Positions 2,384-44,604 of a stretch of DNA of 64,000 bases are shown in pieces. Numbering within the stretch: position 1 is the first letter of the stretch; each line of letters opens with the position of its first letter. The notes under the pieces are model-generated. The model did no database searches. It had not been told where the DNA came from and worked only from the letters and a program-made list of their open reading frames with translations. Source of the stretch: an archaeon (GTDB taxonomy: Archaea; Undinarchaeota; Undinarchaeia; Undinarchaeales; JBDRKL01); contig JBDRKL010000012.1 in assembly GCA_043814055.1 (NCBI GenBank), positions 1-64,000 of the forward strand, given 5' to 3'. The position numbers and the translations under genes are program-made.

Positions 2384-3559
2384 ATGGATTACAAGGCGAA
2401 TATTTGGAAGATGTACTTTTTGAGTTTTCTAGCCAATATGCATTTCTTCGCAGGAGTTATGATTCCATTTTTTATGTACTGGGGCAAAATCAGCTATATG
2501 CAGATAATGATGCTGCAGGCACTTTTCATTTTAAGCGTTTTCATTCTGGAGGTTCCTACAGGAGCGATTGCGGATAGGTTTGGAAGGAAGATTTCAATCT
2601 CGCTGGGAATGCTCGGACTTATAGCAGGAGTGCTGATTTATGCTTCAATCCCGAACATTTGGGTTTTTATGGTTGGTGAAGTAATATGGGCGCTTGGCTG
2701 CGCATTGATTTCAGGCGCGGACGAGGCGATTTTGTATGACACCCTAAAAAAAATGAAAAAGGAACGAGACTTTAAGAAAGTTCTTGGAAGATACACAAGC
2801 TTCCTCCTGCTCGGCATACTGGTTGCCGGGCCTATTGGAAGTTTTATCGCGGGCACAATTGGGCTGCGGTATTCAATGATGTTAATGGCTGTGCCGCTTT
2901 TCTTTGCGTTCCTGGTTGCTCTGACGCTTAAGGAACCGCCCATAGTAAAGAAAATCTCAAAGGAGAACTATTTCAAAACATTGATAGAGGGAGTTAATTA
3001 TTTTAGAAAACACAAGATTTTGAAAATACTTGCCTTTGACAAGATAATGGTTTGGACGATAATATTTCTGGTGGTGTGGACTTACCAGCCTCTGCTTCTC
3101 GGTCTTGGGATGAAATTAATATACCTCGGTTTCGTGGTAAGCGCAATGACCTTTTTTGAGATAGTTGTGATTAACAGCGCGGACAGGCTGGAAAAAATAT
3201 TCCGCGGGAAGCTCAGATTCCTGAGGCTCAGCGCGATTATTTGCGCAGCAGCATACATACTGGCTGGACTAACAAGCCTAATTCTGCTTTCCACGATTTT
3301 GGTTATAATAATCGCAGGGTTTGGAACTGCGCGAGAGGTTTTGCTCAGGAATTATATGAACAAGCATGTTGAGTCTAGAACGCGTGCAACCGTGATGTCA
3401 GCTGTTTCAATGTTTCAGTGCCTAGTTCAGGGAATTTTCTACATAATACTTGGATTGCTGGTTGCGTGGTCGCTTGAATACACGCACGTTGTACTTGGCG
3501 TTTTGATACTCATCGTTGTTCTGGTTTCAAGAGTTGAAGAAAAGCATTTGCTGGACTAA
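2384..3559 (+). CDS. MFS transporter
   Basis: EVPTGAIADRFGRK (MFS motif A), SGADEA; about 12 hydrophobic segments. Confidence 0.9.
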   Translation: MDYKANIWKMYFLSFLANMHFFAGVMIPFFMYWGKISYMQIMMLQALFILSVFILEVPTGAIADRFGRKISISLGMLGLIAGVLIYASIPNIWVFMVGEVIWALGCALISGADEAILYDTLKKMKKERDFKKVLGRYTSFLLLGILVAGPIGSFIAGTIGLRYSMMLMAVPLFFAFLVALTLKEPPIVKKISKENYFKTLIEGVNYFRKHKILKILAFDKIMVWTIIFLVVWTYQPLLLGLGMKLIYLGFVVSAMTFFEIVVINSADRLEKIFRGKLRFLRLSAIICAAAYILAGLTSLILLSTILVIIIAGFGTAREVLLRNYMNKHVESRTRATVMSAVSMFQCLVQGIFYIILGLLVAWSLEYTHVVLGVLILIVVLVSRVEEKHLLD

Positions 3560-3566
3560 AAAATAA

Positions 3567-3869
3567 CGAGCGAAGCTCCGAATTGCGAAGCAATTCGTTT
3601 TTGATCAAACTCCAGACGCGCGAAGCGCGTTGGCCTCGGACGCTTTGTGTCCGACATTTTTCACAAATAAAAAGTTTGCGTCGAGCGAAGCGAGATTTTT
3701 GGTCAAGCTTTTTGCACGAGCGATAGCGAGTCTTTTTGATCACTCCGCCTGCTCGCGGAGGTAGAGCGGAGGCATTCGCCTTCGGCGAAGCCTCTATATA
3801 ATTTAGCATACGAGCGAAGCGAGTTTTTTGATCAAACTTTTTGGATAAATATCACCAATAAAAAGTTTG
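3567..3869. repeat. tandem cluster of about four family-A hairpin repeat units (CGAGCGAAGCGAG...TTTTTGRTCAARC-T5...A5G(G/T)TTG)
   Basis: CGAGCG(A/AT)AGC recurs near 3567, 3682, 3717 and 3811, each followed by TTTTTG(A/G)TCA. Inverted repeat CAAACTTTTT...AAAAAGTTTG ends 1 nt from the RNase P RNA 3' end. Confidence 0.85.
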
Positions 3870-3870
3870 T

Positions 3871-4207
3871 GCCGGAGTCAGTCGTAAATCTTCTTCTGTT
3901 TGTGCACTCTGAATTTTTGAGGTTCAGTGTGCCCGCGGTGAAGCGGGTGACGGCATTTTACTAAGCACCATACCGGCTTTCTCATCAGCGGTCATTGAAA
4001 GCACATTTGGCTTGCATCCATGCAGGCACTGTTCGTTTCATCCAAGCCGTTAGATCTCTGCTTTTCAGCTTCATGGCGTATAAACGGTGTGGTTCGTTTC
4101 TGTGACAGCACCAAACCCTCTCAGGCTTTCCATTGCTGGCTACACTGCTGTGGATGGAAGATTTTCCTCAGCCGCAAAGCGGCCGTAAGCCGTCCACTAA
4201 CTCCGGC
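3871..4207 (-). ncRNA. rnpB: RNase P RNA
   Basis: P1 termini GCCGGAGT.../...ACTCCGGC. Conserved blocks GAGGAAA, ACAGAAAC, TGAAAC, GCAAG and AACAGAA occur in the correct order. Confidence 0.9.
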
Positions 4208-18393: not shown

Positions 18394-18411
18394 AGGTTTT
18401 TACCAATGTGC

Positions 18412-18576
18412 ACCGAGATACAAAGCTTTTTTCGTCAACGTTTTTGCGAAGCAAAAAGGTTGGACTTCACACCACCGGGGCAACTTTATGTGCGCCAGGC
18501 AATGTACTTTTCTTTTGGTCAAGCTTTTCTTCGTAAAGAAAAGATTGCCGTTGAGTACACCACCGGGGCAACTTTA
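18412..18576 (-). repeat. two extra copies of the tRNA-Glu 5' end, each followed by a family-A unit
   Basis: ACACCACCGGGGCA at 18381, 18469 and 18557, with TTTT(G/C)GTCAA...AAAAG(G/A)TTG units between. Confidence 0.85.
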
Positions 18577-18693: not shown

Positions 18694-18696
18694 TAA

Positions 18697-18808
18697 TGGG
18701 CCCGTCGTGATTCGAACACGAGACCTCACGCTTTCGCAAGCGTGCCCGCATTTTGTGCGGAACACAGCCATATAAGGCGTGCGCTCCACCAGGCTGAGCT
18801 ACGGGCCC
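18697..18808 (-). tRNA. tRNA-Ile(TAT) with 38-nt intron at 37/38 (18733-18770)
   Basis: GGGCCCG acceptor stem, CACGC-CT TAT A|intron|A-GCGTG, T arm TCGTG-TTCGAAT-CACGA, discriminator A. Confidence 0.9.
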
Positions 18809-18944
18809 AAACTTTTATTTAGCCTATGGTTTTGGTTTCCGATGAACTGACCCGATAAGGCCGCAGCATCACCAAAGTGATGCGGCCTAACGCCCCTCCG
18901 CCGCTGTGCGGAGAGCTCCACGGGCCCAAACTTTTATTTAGCCT
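18801..18944. repeat. 25-bp direct duplication (ileS stop plus tRNA-Ile 5' end) enclosing a family-B hairpin
   Basis: ACGGGCCCAAACTTTTATTTAGCCT at 18801-18825 and 18920-18944; GGCCGCAGCATCACCAAAGTGATGCGGCC between them. Confidence 0.85.
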
Positions 18945-34922: not shown

Positions 34923-35047
34923 GCCTCTGTAGCTCAGCGGTAGAGCGTCTGGCTGTTATCACAAAGCGCGCTTTGTGAATCATCACGAAGCGCAGCGAAG
35001 TGATGGGTACCAGAAGGTCGCAGGTTCAAATCCTGCCGGAGGCGCCA
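34923..35047 (+). tRNA. tRNA-Asn(GTT) with 50-nt intron at 37/38 (34959-35008); CCA encoded
   Basis: TCTGG-CT GTT A|intron|A-CCAGA; BHB central helix CUGU/AUGG and outer CAC/GUG. Confidence 0.93.
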
Positions 35048-36527: not shown

Positions 36528-37472
36528 TTACCAATCAACAGCCCGAGTTTTCATTCCTGTTTTCTGCTCCAAGTATTTCACAGCGTGCAGGGCTGCTTTT
36601 GTTCCGTTGCCCACCGCAGTTGTGATTTGTTTTGTCCCGCCAATCACGTCACCGGCTGCGTAGAGCCCTGGTATGCTTGTTGCGCCTTCCCTGGAAACTT
36701 TCACGTGACCTTCCTCGTCCAGCTTCGCGCCAATCTTGCCGGCCATTTCAGAGGCTGGGTTTACTCCAATGTTTATGAAAACTCCGTCTGTTTCTATGAT
36801 TTTTTCCTCGTTTGTTTTTGTGTTGTGGACTTTGAGCCCGGTAACTAGCTTGCCGCCGAGCACTTCCAGCGCGGCGGTGTTAATTATGAGCTCCACATTG
36901 CTTTGCTTTAGGTTTTTAAGCGTTGCCGCGTCAGCGCGGAACTCCTCCCGCCTGTGGATGAGATAAACTTTCTTCGCGATTTTGCTTAGCAGGAGAGCTG
37001 AGTCAACAGCTGTGTTCCCGCCTCCGATTACAGCGACTGTTCTGCCTCTGAAAAATTGAGCGTCGCACGTGGTGCAGTAGCTGACCCCCTTGCCGCGGAA
37101 CTCTTCCTCACCAGGGATGCCGAGCTTGCGGTGCTCTGCGCCTGTTGCGAAAATCACAACCCAGGCCTTGTACTCAGCCTTGGCTGTCTTGAGTATGAAC
37201 TGCTCGTTGTCCATCTTGAGCTCGGTTACCGGCTCCATAAGGACCTTTGCGCCGGCCTTCTCTGCCTGTTCCTTCATTTTTTGAGATAAAGTTGTGCCAG
37301 CGATGCCTTCAGGATAACCAGGATAGTTCTCTATGAACGGGGTCTGCGCCATCTGCCCTCCTGGTATCTTTGACTCAAATAGGATGGTCTTCACTTCCTG
37401 GCGGGCTGCATAGATTCCAGCGGTCATTCCAGCTGGTCCGCAGCCAACGATTAGTATGTCGTATTTGTCCAT
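36528..37472 (-). CDS. trxB: thioredoxin-disulfide reductase
   Basis: GCGPAG, GVSYCTTCD, GGGNTA, HRR, AAGD. Confidence 0.93.
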   Translation of the reverse strand: MDKYDILIVGCGPAGMTAGIYAARQEVKTILFESKIPGGQMAQTPFIENYPGYPEGIAGTTLSQKMKEQAEKAGAKVLMEPVTELKMDNEQFILKTAKAEYKAWVVIFATGAEHRKLGIPGEEEFRGKGVSYCTTCDAQFFRGRTVAVIGGGNTAVDSALLLSKIAKKVYLIHRREEFRADAATLKNLKQSNVELIINTAALEVLGGKLVTGLKVHNTKTNEEKIIETDGVFINIGVNPASEMAGKIGAKLDEEGHVKVSREGATSIPGLYAAGDVIGGTKQITTAVGNGTKAALHAVKYLEQKTGMKTRAVDW

Positions 37473-37650
37473 AGCTCAAGAATGGGACGCGGTTTTAATA
37501 TAGTTTGCGCAAGAAAAACCTTAAATACGGGGAACAACACTGATAGTCTTACAAATGAAACTAAGTGAGTGTCTTCACAGCTAGAGAAATGATTTCACTT
37601 AGTTTGGATTCTGGAAAATTTTTAAAGAGCTTTAGCTGTAAAATTAAAGC

Positions 37651-37805
37651 AAAAAATGGCCCGGGTAGTTCATTGGCAACCTTTTTCTTTTCACAAAAGA
37701 AAAAGCTCGAACGCGCACAGCGCGTTGAGCAACTCGCTGTCGCGAGTTTGTTTGACCAAAAAGAAAACTTCGGACCGATTTGCGAAAAAAATGGCCCGGG
37801 TAGTT
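37651..37805 (+). repeat. 20-bp direct duplication of the tRNA-His 5' end enclosing a family-A unit
   Basis: AAAAAATGGCCCGGGTAGTT at 37651-37670 and 37786-37805; CAACCTTTTT...TTTGACCAAAAAG between them. Confidence 0.87.
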
Positions 37806-37868
37806 TAGTGGTTAGAATTGGAGACTGTGGATCTTCAGACGCGAGTTCAATTCCCGCCCTGGGCCCCA
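37793..37868 (+). tRNA. tRNA-His(GTG), G-1 and CCA encoded
   Basis: GGAGA-CT GTG GA-TCTTC; G-1 opposite C73. Confidence 0.93.
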
Positions 37869-37870
37869 TT

Positions 37871-37950
37871 CAACCTTTTTTCCCTTGCGATTGGGGGAAA
37901 AAGCTTGACCAAAAATCAGGGGCGTTCGCTCGCTACGCTTGCGAAGCCCC
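37871..37950. repeat. family-A repeat at the 3' end of tRNA-His
   Basis: CAACCTTTTTT...AAAAAGCTTGACCAAAAA followed by a GC hairpin containing GCGAAGC. Confidence 0.8.
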
Positions 37951-37973
37951 ACTTCTTTTTACAGGTGATTTAG

Positions 37974-39263
37974 ATGGATAAATTTGAAGCCACCCGCGGA
38001 ATGAGGGATTTCCTTCCAGAGGAGATGGAGAAGAGAAGGTATGTTATTGATATTATTAGGACGACCTTCAAGACCTATGGCTTTGGCGAGATTTGGACTC
38101 CTGCGCTTGAGAGCCTTGGGCTGCTAAGCGCAAAGAGTGGAGGCGGGGACGAGATTGCAAAGACAATATTCACGCTCAAGGACCAAGGAGGAAGGATGCT
38201 CGGGCTCAAGTTTGACCAGACTGTTCCAACCTCAAGGGTTATCGCGAACAACCCGCAGCTTACAAAGCCATTCAAGCGATTCATAATCAGCCCGGTTTGG
38301 AGGTATGAGAGACCGCAAGCAGGGCGATATAGGGAATTCTGGCAGGCGGATGTGGATATTTTCGGCTCGAAAAACCCAGAGGCAGATGTTGAGACTGTTG
38401 CGTGCACAGCCGCTGTTCTTACTGCGCTTGAGTTTGAGGAGTATGAGATAATCATAAACAACAGAAAACTGCTCAAGGGGCTTGCGATGCAGTTCGGATT
38501 CAAGGAGAACCAGGTTGTGGACCTGCAGAGGTGCATTGACAAGCTGGACAAGAACAGCGAGGGTGAAGTTGTGCGCGAAGCAGCTGAGAAAGGGCTTGAC
38601 GAGGACTTGGTAAGGGACTTTATAGCCACGATAAGCATGGAAGGGAAGCCGGAGGATGTTTTGAAAAAGATAAAGCCAAGTTTGAAAGATACACTTGCGC
38701 TGGAAGGGCTTGGCGAACTAGAGGAGTTTATTTCACTTTCAAAGCCGTATGGCATTTATGAGAAGCTCAAGCTGAACTTGAGCATGGTAAGAGGCTTGGA
38801 TTATTACACCGGCACGATTTTTGAGTTCAAGGCAACTGACGCCAAGATTGGCTCGTTTATGGGCGGCGGAAGGTTTGACAAGCTTGTTTCAGCTGCAGGC
38901 GGAGAAGCGATTGCAGCCACCGGGCTTTCAATAGGCGTGGACAGGCTTGTTGAAATTTTGAGAACTAAAGAGAAACTCAAGGCAAGCGGCGGGTGCAGGG
39001 TTCTTGTAGGCTATTTCCCTAACTGCAGGGAGAAAGCAATTGAGATTGCGCAGGGATTGAGGAAGGCTGGGGTTGAAACTGATTTTGACACAAAGCGCAG
39101 GAGCGTTTCAAAAGTTCTGGACTATGCGAACGCGAAGAAGATTCCTTACGTGGTTCTTGTTGGAGAGAAAGAGCTGAAGGAGAACAAGGTTGCGCTTAAG
39201 AATATGGAAACAGGAGAGCAGAAGTTGGTTAAGGAGAGCGAGCTGTTAAAAAGTTTAAAGTAG
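37974..39263 (+). CDS. hisS: histidine--tRNA ligase
   Basis: RGMRDF, DQTVP, RYERPQAGRYREF.Q, RGLDYYTG, GGGRFD; C-terminal anticodon-binding domain. Confidence 0.96.
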   Translation: MDKFEATRGMRDFLPEEMEKRRYVIDIIRTTFKTYGFGEIWTPALESLGLLSAKSGGGDEIAKTIFTLKDQGGRMLGLKFDQTVPTSRVIANNPQLTKPFKRFIISPVWRYERPQAGRYREFWQADVDIFGSKNPEADVETVACTAAVLTALEFEEYEIIINNRKLLKGLAMQFGFKENQVVDLQRCIDKLDKNSEGEVVREAAEKGLDEDLVRDFIATISMEGKPEDVLKKIKPSLKDTLALEGLGELEEFISLSKPYGIYEKLKLNLSMVRGLDYYTGTIFEFKATDAKIGSFMGGGRFDKLVSAAGGEAIAATGLSIGVDRLVEILRTKEKLKASGGCRVLVGYFPNCREKAIEIAQGLRKAGVETDFDTKRRSVSKVLDYANAKKIPYVVLVGEKELKENKVALKNMETGEQKLVKESELLKSLK

Positions 39264-39293
39264 TGGGAAAAACATAGGTAATGATTATGGCAA

Positions 39294-39482
39294 GTGAGTA
39301 TCTTCACATGGATATGCAAACTGGACACGAAGTCCCGTCTAGTTATACCTTTTAAGGCGCGGAAAGAGCTTGAGATTTCTGATTCTGTTCTTTTGAAACT
39401 TACAGAAGACGGACTAGTTGTTACAAAATCTAATGGAGAAGAGGGAAGGCCAATTTCTAAGATGTGTAGGAGAGTAGAATGA
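39294..39482 (+). CDS. AbrB/MazE-family DNA-binding protein
   Basis: KLD.K.RLVIP..AR..L.I pattern. Confidence 0.7.
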   Translation: MSIFTWICKLDTKSRLVIPFKARKELEISDSVLLKLTEDGLVVTKSNGEEGRPISKMCRRVE

Positions 39483-40103
39483 AAAATTCAGCAGAGTGTC
39501 TTCATTTTAGGAATACCAAATAAGGGGCGTTTGAAAGAGCCAGCAGTAGAACTTTTAAAAAAGGCAGGTTTGATTCTTGGCGAGAATGGGAGGTGCCTGA
39601 GCAACAAGGTAGAGGGGGAGAATATTGTTGTGCAGTCTTTCAGGGCAAAGGACATTCCGCTCTATATTGCAGAGGGCGCTGTGGATGTGGGAATTACAGG
39701 ATATGACATTTGGAAAGAGTCCAGATTAGAGCTGAAAGAATTGCTTGACCTGAAATTCGGTTACTGCGACTTGATTTTGGCAGGGGTGGCTGGGAAAAAA
39801 ATAAAGAGAGGGGTGAGGGTTGGAACTTCATTTCCCATGCTTACTGCAAATTACTTCGCAAGGCAGGGAATCGCAGCGAGGATTATTGAAGTTTCAGGCG
39901 CAGTTGAGATTCTTCCAAAGTTAGGAATTGCCGATTTTGTAGTTGACTTGACCAGCACGGGCGCCACCTTGAGGGAGAACGGGCTGGTTGTGCTTGACAA
40001 AATTTTGAGCTCTTCAGCAAGATTGCTGTGCAGGCGGATGAAAGAAAAAAACGTAAAATTTGCTGAGCGACTCAGGGAGGTTATTGAAAATGAAAATTTA
40101 TGA
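39479..40103 (+). CDS. hisG: ATP phosphoribosyltransferase, short form (start ATG out of frame by 1 nt)
   Basis: GIPNKGRL, RAKDIP, GITGYD, GAVE, DLTSTGATL..NGL. ATG 39479 has an SD but the reading frame begins at 39483. Confidence 0.85.
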
Positions 40104-41367
40104 GATGGGGGAAGTCCCGAAAACAATAATGATGCGAGCTAAGACTGACGTTGACTCTGTTAAAGAAAGTGTAGGAGAAACAATAAAAAATATCAGAAAA
40201 AATGGGGATACAGCGCTTCGCAAGTATACTGAGAAGTTTGACAGGGTTTTGATAGAGGATTTCAAAACCAGTGAGGACGAGATTAGGGAAGCATATGAGG
40301 AGATAGATCCGCTTGTTCTTGAAAAAATCAAAGAGCAAATTGAGTATTCAAAAAAGTTCGCGAGCGCAGACAAGAAGAATTTAAAAGAGGAGTGGAGCGT
40401 TCAGCTTGGGGAAGGAATTGAAGGTGGTTTGAAACTTACTCCGATTGAAAGTGTTGGGCTCTACGTGCCAGGCGGGAAAAACCCGTTCCCGACTGTGATG
40501 CAGATTCTTGCGATTCCTGCAAAGATTGCTGGGGTGGAGAAGATTGTTGCGTGCACTCCACCACAGAAAGACGGAAAAATACTAGCAGAGGTTTTGGTTG
40601 CTGCAGATTTGTGCGGCGTGGATGAGGTTTACAAGATGGGCGGGGCGCAGGCAGTTGCTGCTTTTGCTTACGGGACTGAGAGCGTGCCAAAGGTTTTGAA
40701 AGTTGTGGGGCCGGGGAATCCATATGTTACTGCTGCAAAGCTGCTGTGCTTTGGGGAAATTGGGATTGACATGCCAGCAGGACCGAGCGAAGCATTGATT
40801 ATTGCAGATGAAGGCGCAACTCCAAGTTGGCTTGCAGCAGATATCCTTGCAAGGGCAGAGCACGGACCGGATTCTGCCGCTGTGCTTGTAACCTGGAAAA
40901 GGGAAATTGCTGAGAAAACCTTGGAGGAAGTTGGAAGGCAGAAGAAAGAGCGTTCAAGGCAGGAGTATATTGAAACTGCGCTAGAAAAATACTGCGCGGT
41001 TGTTCTTGTCAAGGATTTAAGAGAAGCTGTTGATTTTGCAAACGAATATGCTCCGGAGCACTTGGAGCTACAGGTGGAGAGCCCAAGAGAGATTCTGCCC
41101 TTGATAAATAATGCAGGGTCAGTGTTTCTCGGTTATTACAATCCAGTGGCTGTTGGCGACTACGCAAGCGGCGTGAACCACATATTGCCAACCGGTCAGT
41201 GGGCCAAGATGTTCTCGCCTGTAAGCGTTGAGACATTTATGAAGCGCGTGCAGTTTTCGTATGTGAACAAAACCGGGCTTGAGAAGCTGAAAGGAATTGT
41301 TGACACGATTGCTGATATTGAAGGTTTGGACGCGCACAGGGAGAGCGTAGATATTAGGCTCCGCTGA
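40090..41367 (+). CDS. hisD: histidinol dehydrogenase
   Basis: GLYVPGG, GGAQA, GPGN.YV, IDMPAGPSE, AEH, APEHL, GDY.SG.NH.LPT. Confidence 0.95.
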   Translation: MKIYEMGEVPKTIMMRAKTDVDSVKESVGETIKNIRKNGDTALRKYTEKFDRVLIEDFKTSEDEIREAYEEIDPLVLEKIKEQIEYSKKFASADKKNLKEEWSVQLGEGIEGGLKLTPIESVGLYVPGGKNPFPTVMQILAIPAKIAGVEKIVACTPPQKDGKILAEVLVAADLCGVDEVYKMGGAQAVAAFAYGTESVPKVLKVVGPGNPYVTAAKLLCFGEIGIDMPAGPSEALIIADEGATPSWLAADILARAEHGPDSAAVLVTWKREIAEKTLEEVGRQKKERSRQEYIETALEKYCAVVLVKDLREAVDFANEYAPEHLELQVESPREILPLINNAGSVFLGYYNPVAVGDYASGVNHILPTGQWAKMFSPVSVETFMKRVQFSYVNKTGLEKLKGIVDTIADIEGLDAHRESVDIRLR

Positions 41368-41396
41368 GAACAGCGGGGTTCGATTGGAGGTGAAAA

Positions 41397-42002
41397 ATGA
41401 AAATTGAGGAAAAAAGGAAGACCAGCGAGTCTGAAATAAAAGTGGTTTTGGAAGATGGTCAGAGAAGAGATATGAAAATTGATACTGGCTTGAACTTTTT
41501 GAACCACCAAGTGAAGCAGATAGCGTGGCGGCTGTGCATGAACATAGACGCGAGCATAAAGAACACAACTGAGTACAGGAGCACGCACACGATGTCAGAG
41601 GATTTGGGAATAGTGCTAGGCAGGGCTTTGCTCAAGATGTACGAACAGAAAGCAAAAGAAGGTGTGAATGGGTTCGGCGCAGCGTATGGAGTGATTGACG
41701 AGGCGCGGGCTTTCGCAGCGGTGAGCATAGAAGGCAGGGCAAACTCGTTTGTGGAGATGTGCCCTGAAATTGAGCGGCTTGAACTTGTTGAGGATATGCT
41801 GTGCTGGGACTTGGTCGCATTCCTTGAAGGGCTTGCGCAGGGCATGAAAGCAACTGTGCAGGTGAACATTGAGCGTGGCAGAGACCCCCACCACTCCTGG
41901 GAAGCTACGTACAGGGCACTCGGAGAGGCGCTCAAAATAGCACTTCAGAAGAATGAATGGAGGAAAGGCACAATTGCAGGAGTAAAAGGAACACTAGAAT
42001 GA
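41397..42002 (+). CDS. hisB: imidazoleglycerol-phosphate dehydratase (divergent)
   Basis: R.TSE, TG..FLNH, H..SED, IDEA, HH..EA; operon context. Confidence 0.85.
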   Translation: MKIEEKRKTSESEIKVVLEDGQRRDMKIDTGLNFLNHQVKQIAWRLCMNIDASIKNTTEYRSTHTMSEDLGIVLGRALLKMYEQKAKEGVNGFGAAYGVIDEARAFAAVSIEGRANSFVEMCPEIERLELVEDMLCWDLVAFLEGLAQGMKATVQVNIERGRDPHHSWEATYRALGEALKIALQKNEWRKGTIAGVKGTLE

Positions 42003-42658
42003 AAGCTGTAATTTTTGACATGGACGGGGTGCTGGTCAAGGAGGACCGGTACTGGAAAGTGGCCAGTGAAGTGGCATTTGACCTAGCGGGGAGAAGGATT
42101 CCTTTTGCTTTCGTTCAAGAGTGCAAAAGCAGGGGAATGAATTCAAACTGGGAAATCTGCTACGAGTTCGTCAAAGGGACTGGGATTGATTATGAAGGAG
42201 TCAAAGAACTTTTTCAGAAAAAGTTGGCAGAATTAAATCCAAAAAATGAGCTTGTAATAAGTAGAGAGGCTTTCCTTGATGTTTTCTTTAGCCTGAAGCC
42301 CTTGTACTCAATGTACATAGCGACCAGCAGACCGAGGAAAGAAGCGCTGGAGGCGGTTGAGCAGACTGTTCTTTCAGAATTTTTCAATGAGGATTCGGTT
42401 TATGGAATGGAAGATGCCGCACCTGAGAAAAATCTGAAAGAAGCCCTGTTCTCCATGGTCAGGGAGAAAAACAAATTAGGGGACTGCATCGTGGTTGGGG
42501 ATACTGTTTCAGATGTCCTGGCAGGAAAGCGCCTTGGGTTCATGGCAGTTGGAGTTTATGGCAGTTTGGACAATAGGGCAGACCTTGAAAAAGCCAGGGC
42601 GGATATTTTGGCAGAGAACCTATCGGAGCTTTGGATTTTGTTGGATGGAATCAAATGA
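41999..42658 (+). CDS. HAD-family phosphatase, candidate histidinol-phosphatase
   Basis: FDMDGVL, ATSRP, GDT..D; lies inside the his operon. Confidence 0.75.
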   Translation: MKAVIFDMDGVLVKEDRYWKVASEVAFDLAGRRIPFAFVQECKSRGMNSNWEICYEFVKGTGIDYEGVKELFQKKLAELNPKNELVISREAFLDVFFSLKPLYSMYIATSRPRKEALEAVEQTVLSEFFNEDSVYGMEDAAPEKNLKEALFSMVREKNKLGDCIVVGDTVSDVLAGKRLGFMAVGVYGSLDNRADLEKARADILAENLSELWILLDGIK

Positions 42659-43326
42659 AAATTTATCCTGCAATTGATTTGCTTGGCGGAAGAGCAGTGC
42701 AATTGGTTGGCGGAGATCCAACTAAGCTTTTGTTTAGCAGGGATGCTCTTGAGCAGGCTGAGAAATTCAAAGAAGTGACCTTGTGGCTGATTGATTTGAA
42801 TTCTGCACTAGGCAATGGATCTAACCTCAAACTTATAAAAAAAATACTCACTAAAAGCCCTGCTTGCGTTGGAGGAGGCATTCGAACCATAGAAAAAGCC
42901 AATGAAATGTTAGAAGCAGGGGCTGAAAAAATAATCATTGGAACAAAAGCAGTTGAAGACCCTGAGTTTTTGAAAAACTTCGATCCAGAAAAGGTGATAG
43001 TTGCACTTGACTGCAAGAAGGGGAAAGTATGCATTGATGCGTGGCAATCTGAGACTGGGCGCGAAGTTGAAGACATTGGAGCAAAATATTACCTTGTAAC
43101 AAATATTGATGTTGAGGGACGGCAGGAAGGACTTGACTTTTCTTTTGTTGAGAATGTTTTGGACAAATTGCCTAATGTGATAATTTCTGGCGGAATTTCT
43201 TCCCCAGAAGATGTTTTTAAAATTAAAAAAATGGGCGCGTACGGTGTCGTTATAGGCAGCGCGCTTTATTCTGGAAAAATAAAACTTGAGGAGGTTTTAA
43301 ATGAAAAAAATAATGCCATGCCTTGA
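42655..43326 (+). CDS. hisA: ProFAR isomerase
   Basis: IYPAIDL..G.AVQL..G, VGGGIR, SGG. Confidence 0.92.
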   Translation: MKIYPAIDLLGGRAVQLVGGDPTKLLFSRDALEQAEKFKEVTLWLIDLNSALGNGSNLKLIKKILTKSPACVGGGIRTIEKANEMLEAGAEKIIIGTKAVEDPEFLKNFDPEKVIVALDCKKGKVCIDAWQSETGREVEDIGAKYYLVTNIDVEGRQEGLDFSFVENVLDKLPNVIISGGISSPEDVFKIKKMGAYGVVIGSALYSGKIKLEEVLNEKNNAMP

Positions 43327-44050
43327 CACTTTTGATGGAAAGCTTGTCAAAGGCGTGAAGTTTGAGATAAACAAAGAATTTGGAGACCCAGTAGAGTATG
43401 CAAAGAAGTATTGTGAAGATGGTGCTGACGAGCTTGCTGTGCTGGACATTAACGCGACTCCTGAAGGGAGAGCTACATTGCTCGAGGTTGTGAAGAACAT
43501 TTCAGCAGTGTGCACTGTGCCGCTCACAGTTGGGGGCGGAATACGGAGTGTTGAAGAGATTGAAAAAGTGCTTGATGCAGGCGCTGACAAGGTTTCAATA
43601 AACACCGCTGCTGTGAATCGACCTGAGTTGATTAAAGAAGCTGCTGAAAAATTTGGCTCTGAAAAAATTGTTGTAGCAATTGACTTCACCAAGAAAGATG
43701 GAACTTGGAAAGTGCTTGTTAATGCAGGAAAAACAATTGTTGACAAAGACGTGATTGAATGGGCCAAAGAAGCTGAGGAGTTGGGCGCAGGAACTTTGCT
43801 TCCAACTAGTTTGGATGCTGATGGGACAAAAAAGGGCTTTGATTTAGAGGCAACCCGGCTGATAAAAGAGTCTGTTTCAGTGCCAGTAATCGCAAGTGGC
43901 GGCGCAGGAACTCTTGAGGACATGTACAAAGTGCTGACAGAGGGTAAAGCGGATGTTGCATTGGCAGCAAGTATTTTCCACTACGGAGAATACACAGTAC
44001 GGGATGTCAAGAAGTATCTAAAAGAAAAAGGAGTTGAGGTGAATCTATGA
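43301..44050 (+). CDS. hisF: imidazole glycerol phosphate synthase cyclase subunit
   Basis: [32 protein letters not shown]. Confidence 0.95.
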
Positions 44051-44604
44051 ATTTGAAACCAGTTATTGCTCAGGACGCCAGCACAAAAGAAGTGCTTATG
44101 CTAGCGTGGGCCAATGAAGAAGCGCTTGAGAAAACAAAGGAAACCGGGTATGCCTGGTATTGGTCAAGAAGCAGAAATAAACTGTGGAAGAAGGGTGAGA
44201 GCTCAGGAAATGTGCAGAAGATTGTTGAGGTTATGGAAGACTGTGACAAGGATGCTCTGCTGTACATTGTTGAGCAGAAAGGAAATGCCTGCCACACTGG
44301 GAAATATTCCTGCTTCAAAAAGGAAAAACCATTTACGCTTGAAGTTTTGGAAAAAGTGATTGAGCAGAGGAAGCTGGAGAAACAAGAAGGCAGTTATACT
44401 GTGAAGCTTTTGGAGGATGAGGAATTGGCGTGTGAGAAAGTTTTGGAAGAGGCAGGAGAAGTTGTGCAGGCGGTGAAGAAAGAGGGAAAACAGAGAACAA
44501 TTGAAGAGGCCGCTGACGTGCTGTATCACTTGATGGTTTTGCTCGCTGGGAAAGGTATAAAATGGATAGAGGTTGTTGGGGAATTAAGCAATAGGTCTAA
44601 ATAA
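44047..44604 (+). CDS. hisIE: bifunctional PR-AMP cyclohydrolase / PR-ATP pyrophosphatase
   Basis: WSRSR..LW.KGESSG, DCD.D, ACHTG..SCF, then EEAGE...EAADVLYH. Confidence 0.95.

Follow-up and report, generated by a model that had tools for sequence, protein, structure and literature searches.

The tRNA-His(GTG) gene of an archaeon of the order Undinarchaeales (assembly GCA_043814055.1, contig JBDRKL010000012.1) is preceded by a truncated second copy of its own leader and first nucleotides, and a 115-nt hairpin cassette lies between the two copies. We studied positions 1 to 64,000 of the forward strand of this contig, hereafter the window; the assembly (G000) is 82% complete. As judged from the sequence comparisons given below, the observation is real: the arrangement is an insertion that left a decoy start, and it belongs to a lineage-wide process. 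We consider it probable that the explanation holds as a whole, namely that a cassette entered with duplication of its target, that the upstream copy became a dead decoy, that the old promoter transcribes the gene, and that such cassettes spread with a tRNA-derived arm. The elements of the locus are listed here; G003 is a relative from another family of the order.

37620..37627, plus strand: TATA-like box TTTTAAAG of the presumed tRNA-His promoter; in 7 aligned relatives an A/T box stands at the same place, following the conserved upstream element.
37651..37670, plus strand: direct repeat copy 1, the dead 5' fragment ('decoy'); 20/20 match to 37786-37805.
37671..37785, plus strand: inserted hairpin cassette, 115 nt, made up of a family-A unit, a nested module and a tail; defined by fold and comparison with relatives.
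37677..37704, plus strand: family-A hairpin CAACCTTTTTCTTTTCACAAAAGAAAAA; 25 consecutive columns identical to the tRNA-His unit of G003.
37705..37751, plus strand: nested double-hairpin module, 47 nt, lodged in the 3' arm of the A unit; supported by covariation and by a 45-column gap in G003.
37752..37785, plus strand: 3' motif TTGACCAAAAAGAAAA of the A unit and 24-nt cassette tail up to the second repeat; AAAAAGAAAACTTC is common with G003.
37786..37805, plus strand: direct repeat copy 2, leader and first 12 nt of the working gene; exact repeat.
37793..37868, plus strand: intact tRNA-His(GTG), with G-1 and CCA encoded; ARAGORN and Rfam RF00005.

The repeat AAAAAATGGCCCGGGTAGTT was found in two exact copies (37651-37670 and 37786-37805). 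No third copy was present within the window even when up to 3 mismatches were allowed, and at least 2 matches to this 20-mer were obtained in 0 of 100 dinucleotide shuffles; the exact 20-bp duplication described in the initial annotation, which had been made from the DNA letters alone, is therefore well founded. It comprises positions −8 to +12 of tRNA-His, that is a 7-nt leader, G-1 and nt 1-12. ARAGORN placed the tRNA-His(GTG) gene at 37794-37868, and the Rfam tRNA model RF00005 matched 37794-37865 with 57.2 bits and model positions 1-71 unbroken; in a scan of 37400-38000 with E values up to 10, tRNA alone exceeded the gathering score. This is the sole call with a GTG anticodon in the assembly, tRNA-His being thus seemingly single-copy; a 95-nt 'tRNA-His(atg)' call at C6:86651-86745 is doubtful. 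The break had been put at about nt 12, which holds for the exact repeat but not for the imperfect match, since the latter runs on to nt 18. Past the exact repeat, the upstream copy reads CATTGG and the gene TAGTGG (4 of 6 positions matching at nt 13-18); the truncated copy agrees with tRNA-His at 16 of 18 positions through nt 18, and the family-A arm CAACC begins only afterwards. The true junction between decoy and cassette may lie in the D-loop rather than at nt 12.

We then compared the locus with that of 12 other genomes of the order. It was recovered in 10, the contigs of G009 and G010 stopping at hisS. The site was empty, with an uninterrupted promoter-tRNA-His sequence, in six of the ten (G002, G006, G007, G011, G001 and G005), and a decoy was present in the other four (G003, G004, G008 and G012). 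The view that the locus is a second case of the architecture seen at tRNA-Glu is thus borne out, and the six uninterrupted sites point to an insertion. At three of the filled sites, those of one genus (G004, G008 and G012), another hairpin insert is found, 35 nt long and with the break at nt 8; it is flanked by the repeat AATCAATAAAAATGGCCCGGAT, which matches exactly through 22 bp in G008 and shows a few differences in G004 and G012. As read from these last two sequences, the decoy decays, as expected of a functionless by-product. In G003 a decoy is present, with a tRNA-His repeat of about 19 bp (17/19 identical), and its congener G007 has none. The G003 unit is collinear with ours: it has the decoy, joined at nt 17/18, then 25 hairpin columns identical to ours, a gap and another 14 identical columns (AAAAAGAAAACTTC), and the gap, of 45 columns, falls exactly at the place of our nested module. 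The tRNA-His genes of the two genomes are merely 83% identical, and the cassette appears at least as conserved as the tRNA-His gene around it. Because of this locus comparison and of the collinearity with G003, we take the site to be empty in most relatives and the nested module to be, as the alignment indicates, a later addition in our lineage. Among metagenome contigs, no exact match was obtained to the upstream flank plus repeat, nor to a 36-nt stretch of the tRNA.

Other modifications of tRNA-His were seen in the same comparison. Three relatives with an empty site have tRNA-His introns at 37/38, of 45 nt in G001 (L053), 111 nt in G005 (L054) and 27 nt in G011 (L052), and these introns open with an A-like hairpin, e.g. 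CGAACTTTTTAGAAAAAGTTCG. Outside the order, the 3' end of tRNA-His is duplicated in G024 (L006), where about 24 nt are repeated on either side of a 70-nt insert, and in G027 (L010), with AATCCCGGCTTGGGCCCT around a 52-nt insert.

The inserted cassette contains no open reading frame and is structured, with a predicted fold of −37.0 kcal/mol compared with −26.9±3.1 for shuffled sequences (z −3.2). Family A is defined by a 5' arm CAACCTTTTT that pairs with AAAAAGCTTG, followed by ACCAAAA, and both units of the tRNA-His locus, the one in the leader and the one behind the gene, show these features. In the leader unit the arms CAACCTTTTT...AAAAAG and TTGACCAAAA (37752-37761) are separated by the double hairpin, so that the earlier statement that the duplication encloses a family-A unit with extra hairpins proved accurate for 37671-37785. 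Since both arms (37677-37686 and 37700-37761) are present but split by the nested module, this unit is not listed by R1, the covariance model of family A made in this analysis. The double hairpin is itself a recurrent module: in an alignment (A2) of 6 copies, 4 nested in A units and 2 free-standing, 7 of 18 pairs have changed on both sides while pairing is kept in 99.1% of cells, which none of 500 shuffles equalled. Inverting one end of the insert (CATTGG...) does not give the other (...GATTTGCGA); terminal inverted repeats are absent and the inverted repeat is internal. A near-identical donor of the cassette was not found in the genome, the best match being 90% over 68 nt.

A few further features of the cassette ends were recorded. 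CATTGG opens the tRNA-His cassette (37671-37676), GCACATTGG closes the inner tRNA-Glu cassette (18405-18412, minus strand), and ACATTG occurs in the outer one; the likeness of CATTGG and GCACATTGG could hint at circularly permuted joins, or be due to chance. By eye, junctions at His, at Glu, at the tRNA at 18696-18809, at Ala and at several 3' events carry 'scars', i.e. 1-3 altered or added bases followed by 3-6 more tRNA-like bases. Complementarity of the cassette tail to the decoy was considered as a general rule and rejected, as it amounts to 7 of 8 pairs in the g5 relatives, is lacking in G003 and is weak here.

R1 retrieved 33 units in G000; of 40 other archaeal genomes sampled, 18 held one or more. 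It found no unit in three genomes of family f3, and the tRNA-His site is empty in the two of these in which the locus was recovered. Twenty of the 33 units lie in a predicted tRNA or within 320 nt of one, and all 20 are on the strand of that tRNA, a count inflated by tandem copies; both tRNA-His units are likewise in sense orientation. When 26 simple A units were aligned with MAFFT, RNAalifold gave no pairs, as the loops were misaligned, and the stem was therefore supplied by hand; its pairing amounts to 92%, and two of its pairs show exchanges, A-U/G-C and C-G/A-U. Family-A units also occur within the introns of tRNA-Met and tRNA-Gly. From the sequences, one cassette family would thus be the leader, the trailer or the intron of the same gene in different genomes. 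At least two families are involved, family A and one that opens with GGAGCTCTCCGC and stands behind GGGCCCGT in two different tRNAs.

The survey of all tRNA genes for upstream 5' fragments that the initial annotation had proposed was run, and it yielded additional cases. Exact direct repeats of at least 12 bp, 25-450 bp apart, number 244 genome-wide, compared with 14, 17 and 24 in three shuffles. In this genome 5' decoys stand at six tRNA genes, and 3' ends are duplicated at about nine:

5' decoy, tRNA-His: repeat of 20 bp, break at nt 12.
5' decoy, tRNA-Glu-TTC: repeats of 20 and 14 bp, break at nt 13-14.
5' decoy, tRNA at 18696-18809: repeat of 25 bp, break at nt 8.
5' decoy, tRNA-Ala-CGC: repeat of 14 bp, break at nt 9.
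5' decoy, tRNA-Tyr: repeat of 14 bp, break at nt 14.
5' decoy, tRNA-Glu-CTC: repeat of 13 bp exact, decayed farther upstream, break at nt 18.
3' duplication, tRNA-Pro-TGG: 22 bp.
3' duplication, tRNA-Ser-CGA: 20 bp.
3' duplication, tRNA-Glu-CTC: 19 bp.
3' duplication, tRNA-Ser-GGA: 17 bp.
3' duplication, tRNA-Met: 17 bp.
3' duplication, tRNA-Leu-GAG: 13 bp.
3' duplication, unannotated tRNA-like end at C10:139423: 15 bp.
3' duplication, tRNA-Thr-CGT and tRNA-Thr-TGT: tandem arrays.

Five of the 3' repeats begin at AATCC or AGTCC in the T-loop. The repeat lengths at tRNA ends (13, 14, 14, 14, 17, 17, 19, 20, 20, 20, 22 and 25 bp) do not correspond to one fixed value, and the same architecture is found at starts of protein genes, e.g. 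with an ATG-initial repeat at C10:141171. An insertion mechanism specific for a position, as first suggested, does not agree with these data: because the 5' breaks range from nt 8 to nt 18 and the repeats from 13 to 25 bp, and because tRNA 3' ends and protein-gene starts are affected too, the preference appears, on the sequences compared, to be for gene ends and the D-arm or T-loop region and not for a single nucleotide.

One candidate, a 17-bp repeat at C12:115022/115223 near a 'tRNA-Pyl', was excluded from the counts, as it consists of two adjacent tRNA genes with a common D-arm. The 'tRNA-Pyl(cta)' called there by ARAGORN (C12:115016-115240) looks like a tRNA-Arg(TCT) whose long intron opens with an A-like hairpin, and the second tRNA with the same D-arm stands behind it. 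At C12:153103-153280 a 90-bp unit behind tRNA-Met consists of the 3' 17 nt of the tRNA plus a cassette; it recurs at the end of contig C13 (47429-47655, reverse), 98-99% identical, in at least 2.5 tandem copies and with other flanks, and these C13 copies mark a second locus or else a point where the assembly broke within the array.

The tRNA-Glu units bear on how the cassettes move. Those of G000 (TTC and CTC), of G007 (two loci) and of G003 all have the decoy and the same junction, GTGTA-CYC-AACGGC; 42 columns of their alignment are invariant. Because an identical junction recurs in different genes and genomes, a unit carrying an arm is favoured over independent staggered cuts, and the alignment suggests that a tRNA-derived arm travels with the cassette. 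Some repeats (Ser-GGA; C13:17004, 63 bp) take in 10 nt at the start of a resident A unit, and recombination in shared sequence would fit both these repeats and the variable repeat lengths.

We next considered how the displaced gene might be expressed. The sequence TTTAAA, noticed earlier ahead of the truncated copy, is indeed present at 37621-37626, 30 nt before the start of the repeat. Its distance to the decoy +1 is 38 nt, compared with 39 nt at the outer decoy of Glu-TTC and 39 nt at Tyr. No TATA-like hexamer was found within 70 nt of the intact tRNA-His, as is the case for 31 of the 40 predicted tRNAs, and no promoter-like box was found in the insert; an A-rich sequence, ACCAAAAAGAAAA, 27-36 nt ahead of the intact gene, was considered as a hidden TATA box and dropped, as there was no evidence for it. 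In many of those 31 tRNAs hairpins directly abut the 5' end, and long structured leaders are normal in this genome. Because the intact gene has no such hexamer within 70 nt, we infer that it is transcribed through the cassette, and it would then be released by RNase P, whose RNA is encoded at C12:3873-4205 (141 bits). The presence of family-A units inside the introns of tRNA-Met and tRNA-Gly means that the polymerase must read through such units. When the 220-nt precursor is folded at minimum free energy, it is the decoy, and not the true 5' strand, that pairs with the 3' acceptor strand; because the two copies are identical in sequence, this model presents the decoy only as a possible competitor.

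Several observations on promoters and leaders stand beside these results. A TATA-like hexamer between −62 and −30 is present in only 9 of the 40 tRNAs of G000. A hairpin GTCAACT-N5-GCAGTTGT or AACTTCGCTAGAAGTT abuts the 5' ends of about 7 tRNAs, e.g. at C8:32558, C8:36238, C10:138406 and window position 34923. Behind the RNase P RNA (window 3873-4205, minus strand), a family-A unit (3826-3869) follows within 3 nt, with more cassettes downstream at about 3540-3800. Directly upstream of the tRNA-His promoter, window positions 37520-37615 hold a conserved element of about 75-80 nt, found in all 10 recovered relatives, with its own TATA-like box CTTAAATA at 37520-37527, a core ATGA..AGTGAGTGTCTTCA and a TAAGTGA/TCACTTA stem. 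No Rfam family matched it at threshold; the element may encode a small RNA not described before, perhaps a C/D-box-like one whose boxes are degenerate.

Behind the tRNA gene the locus continues with:

37871..37914, plus strand: second family-A unit, 2 nt past the CCA; 47.8 bits with R1.
37915..37953, plus strand: GC hairpin module ATCAGGGGCG...GAAGCCCCACT, found likewise behind tRNA-Trp; 84% identical to G000:C6:51311-51366.
37974..39263, plus strand: hisS; Pfam tRNA-synt_His (3e-47) and HGTP_anticodon, with GGTGA at 37964-37968.

The further family-A unit reported behind the CCA is thus recovered by the model, and the structured leader does precede hisS and the his operon, the order behind hisS on the same strand being hisG, hisD, hisB, a HAD hydrolase gene, hisA, hisF and hisIE. 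From tRNA-His through the his biosynthesis genes, all lie in one row on one strand (window 37794-44604). The spacer between tRNA-His and hisS measures 105 nt here and 8-67 nt in all 10 recovered relatives, where the trailer A unit is missing; no TATA-like box was seen by eye in our 105-nt spacer. The shortness of the spacer in all these relatives suggests co-transcription of tRNA-His and hisS as a tRNA-mRNA. In one public metatranscriptome run (X1), two small contigs fell on hisS (37991-38185) and none on the tRNA, the leader or the spacer.

We propose the following course of events. A small non-coding hairpin cassette would have inserted into the promoter-proximal end of the tRNA-His gene, and its family-A unit would later have received the double-hairpin module. 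With the insertion the target would have been doubled, exactly so between −8 and +12 and probably on to nt 18 of the D-loop; that the target itself was duplicated is argued by the locus-specific leader bases within the repeat. The upstream copy would have kept its original spacing to the TATA box as a dead decoy, and the working gene would have moved 135 bp onward. The old promoter would then transcribe the gene through the cassette, with a leader of about 143 nt that RNase P would remove, and hisS would be read on the same transcript through the second family-A unit. The cassette would be one of a population of sense hairpin cassettes that this lineage has at the ends of tRNA genes and within tRNA introns, and which would come and go over short evolutionary time scales. 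Most likely they spread when a unit with its tRNA-derived arm recombines into arm-sharing genes, by a Campbell-type crossover or by gap repair, and they would be lost by recombination between the repeats.

Several points weigh against this proposal. The missing near-identical donor is hard to square with a recent event and a perfect 20/20 repeat. The repeats include leader bases peculiar to their locus (7 nt at our site, 14 nt in G008, 17 nt at the 18696-18809 tRNA); because of these, at least the first event at each kind of site must have duplicated the target itself, and the recombination model does not explain the origin of that first duplication. Repeat lengths of 13-25 bp also fit no fixed staggered cut, and junctions conserved across families could instead mean a functional leader. 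The cassette contains runs of T5 and T4 and the trailer unit a run of T6, which could act as archaeal transcription terminators; read-through is argued because tRNA-His and hisS are presumed to be needed. Lastly, Phage_integrase, Cas1, RVT_1, Y1_Tnp and DDE_Tnp_1 had no match in the 82%-complete assembly, and each of them matched control genomes.

For the individual families, Phage_integrase (PF00589) gave 0 matches in G000 against 14 of 14 control genomes, and Cas1 (PF01867) gave none. The transposase families PF01609 and PF01797 were without a match, other transposase families not having been searched, and the TnpB zinc ribbon (PF07282) reached only 16.5 bits, below the cut-off of 26.3. The absence of a PF00589 match also means that no XerA-like recombinase was found in this archaeal assembly.

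Among the other explanations, a transposon-like insertion with a long target-site duplication fares best, and we still think it unlikely. An enzyme supplied in trans would set staggered nicks about two helical turns apart at the ends of tRNA genes and put the cassette in, and only insertions that restore the gene would survive. The repeats do consist of the target's own sequence, leader included, and many measure 17-25 bp (at tRNA-His, 20 bp in our genome, 22 bp in that of G008, about 19 bp in G003). The range of 13-25 bp, with others of 34 and 63 bp, is however at odds with such a cut; the cassette has no terminal inverted repeats, the genome holds no near-identical copies, and a Cas1 or transposase gene was not found. 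Moreover, some repeats (Ser-GGA, C13:17004) extend over the initial 10 nt of an A unit already in place and resemble a crossover in shared sequence, and identical decoy/cassette junctions across genes and genomes are not expected from independent staggered cuts. MITEs (miniature transposable elements with inverted repeats), repetitive extragenic palindromic (REP) sequences and the Rickettsia palindromic elements are short, structured, non-autonomous repeats tolerated in or beside genes of prokaryotes, and in these respects our cassette is like them. Their duplications are short and fixed, or missing, and they possess terminal repeats as well as a cognate transposase or REP-associated tyrosine transposase (RAYT); the cassette differs in having no fixed duplication length, no terminal repeats and no cognate transposase that we could find. 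The casposon offers a further parallel, with a long target duplication at a tRNA end in which a T-loop segment is involved. In the part of that study on which we draw (Beguin et al. 2016, PMC5137440), the Cas1 casposase produces a 15-bp duplication that overlaps the 3' end of tRNA-Pro, requires the T-loop segment and keeps a fixed yardstick of 14-15 bp, and the element has terminal inverted repeats. Our locus differs from that description by its 20-bp repeat (13-25 bp overall), by the lack of terminal inverted repeats and by the unmatched PF01867.

A relic of integrase activity is less probable again. Here a pTN3-type element would have integrated at tRNA-His and been mostly deleted, the 20-bp repeats being attL and attR around a 115-bp remnant. 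According to the sections consulted on the pTN3-like (suicidal) tyrosine integrases of Thermococcales (PMC8371274), the 5' half of tRNA genes serves as attB, so that, as at our locus, a second copy of the 5' part of the tRNA arises and the working gene comes to lie behind the inserted DNA, displaced from its own promoter; the integrating DNA is a plasmid or virus of kilobase size that brings an integrase, and the promoter of this integrase drives the tRNA. In Caldiarchaeum subterraneum, the excerpted account of tRNA-Thr(GGU) (Sugahara et al. 2012, PMC3293823) describes a 5' fragment, tRNA-Thr-F (nt 1-27), beside a 1,868-bp insert with a recombinase-like open reading frame, i.e. 1.87 kb upstream of the intact gene. 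The order is the one seen here: a dead 5' fragment with upstream sequence, inserted DNA, then the intact gene. The fragment varies within the population, and in the same excerpt the authors link it to intron gain (PMC3293823). The decoy at tRNA-His also runs on as an imperfect tRNA copy to nt 18, like an attP arm, and 3' repeats mostly begin in the T-loop (AATCC), a classical crossover site. Partial tRNA genes are common in Thermococcaceae, where, in the portion of the report used (PMC9897764), 44-bp repeats surround elements of 9-23 kb at the 3' side; a tRNA fragment and an intact copy flank the inserted DNA as direct repeats there as here, whereas our cassette is tiny, non-coding and at the 5' side. 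The differences from the other two systems, as those sources present them, are of the same kind: compared with Caldiarchaeum (PMC3293823), the insert is 115 nt of gene-less hairpins, the exact repeat is 20 bp and a recombinase gene was not found; compared with the pTN3-like elements (PMC8371274), there is no integrase match or promoter-like box, and the repeat is shorter than the 5' half and reaches into the locus-specific leader. Against a relic stands first the result for PF00589. The insert is, in addition, no random remnant, but a member of a structured family with at least 33 copies and compensatory changes. A locus-specific leader of 7-17 nt lies within the repeat at several sites, protein-gene starts show the same architecture, and inserts of 35-140 nt at about 15 sites would each need the same near-total deletion. 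A full-text search, with subscription journals outside its coverage, returned nothing that describes hairpin cassettes without genes and with repeats of 13-25 bp at the 5' ends of tRNAs.

That the structure is a regulatory leader kept by selection, in which decoy and hairpins tune the maturation of tRNA-His or the expression of hisS and the his genes, for instance by competing for the 3' acceptor strand, is in our judgement more doubtful still. The pairing of the decoy with that strand in the 220-nt precursor fold, the maintenance of decoy/cassette junctions across families and the linkage of tRNA-His to hisS in 10 of 10 recovered relatives are all in its favour, but the unit is missing in 6 of these 10, a congener of G003 among them, the decoy has decayed in G004 and G012, and lineages differ in cassette and breakpoint at this site; the fold itself follows from the identity of the two copies and is silent on use. 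Least credible of all is a fragmented gene with an upstream exon, cassette and second repeat forming a non-canonical intron at nt 12/13, or else an assembly artefact: although family-A units occur in tRNA introns of this genome and A-like hairpins in the 37/38 intron of tRNA-His in G001, G005 and G011, the downstream tRNA-His is complete (Rfam positions 1-71 unbroken) and needs no splicing, a bulge-helix-bulge was not identified by eye at either junction, the cassette, unlike an archaeal bulge-helix-bulge intron, lies upstream of a complete gene and leaves the mature tRNA-His uninterrupted, and the same architecture recurs in independently assembled relatives.

Cassette insertion with target duplication thus remains the explanation we prefer, and what is new here is the occurrence of empty and filled tRNA-His sites among relatives with a collinear unit in another family, together with the common tRNA-Glu junctions and the constant spacing from TATA box to decoy. 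A wider reading, which we put forward tentatively and hold to be possible but on balance doubtful, is that DPANN archaea harbour undescribed mobile gene-less hairpin cassettes that carry a short arm from a tRNA start or end and enter arm-sharing genes without a recognisable dedicated recombinase, the same cassettes appearing as leaders with decoy starts, as trailers, or as introns at 37/38. For annotation, decoy starts, structured leaders and cassette-filled spacers will mislead tRNA finders and the calling of promoters and operons in small archaeal genomes. If read-through holds, tRNA-His, hisS and perhaps the his operon would rely on one promoter while being separated from it by inserted hairpins. 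The documented cases in which archaeal tRNA genes acquired introns, fragments or split forms involve kilobase-sized elements with recombinases, whereas here a 115-nt gene-less cassette would achieve the like in a seemingly single-copy tRNA gene. Empty and filled sites in close relatives, with the same family in tRNA introns, provide sequences on which the birth of introns and fragments can be tested; if the wider reading is true, such cassettes would still be giving rise to tRNA introns and to tRNA genes in split or fragmented form.

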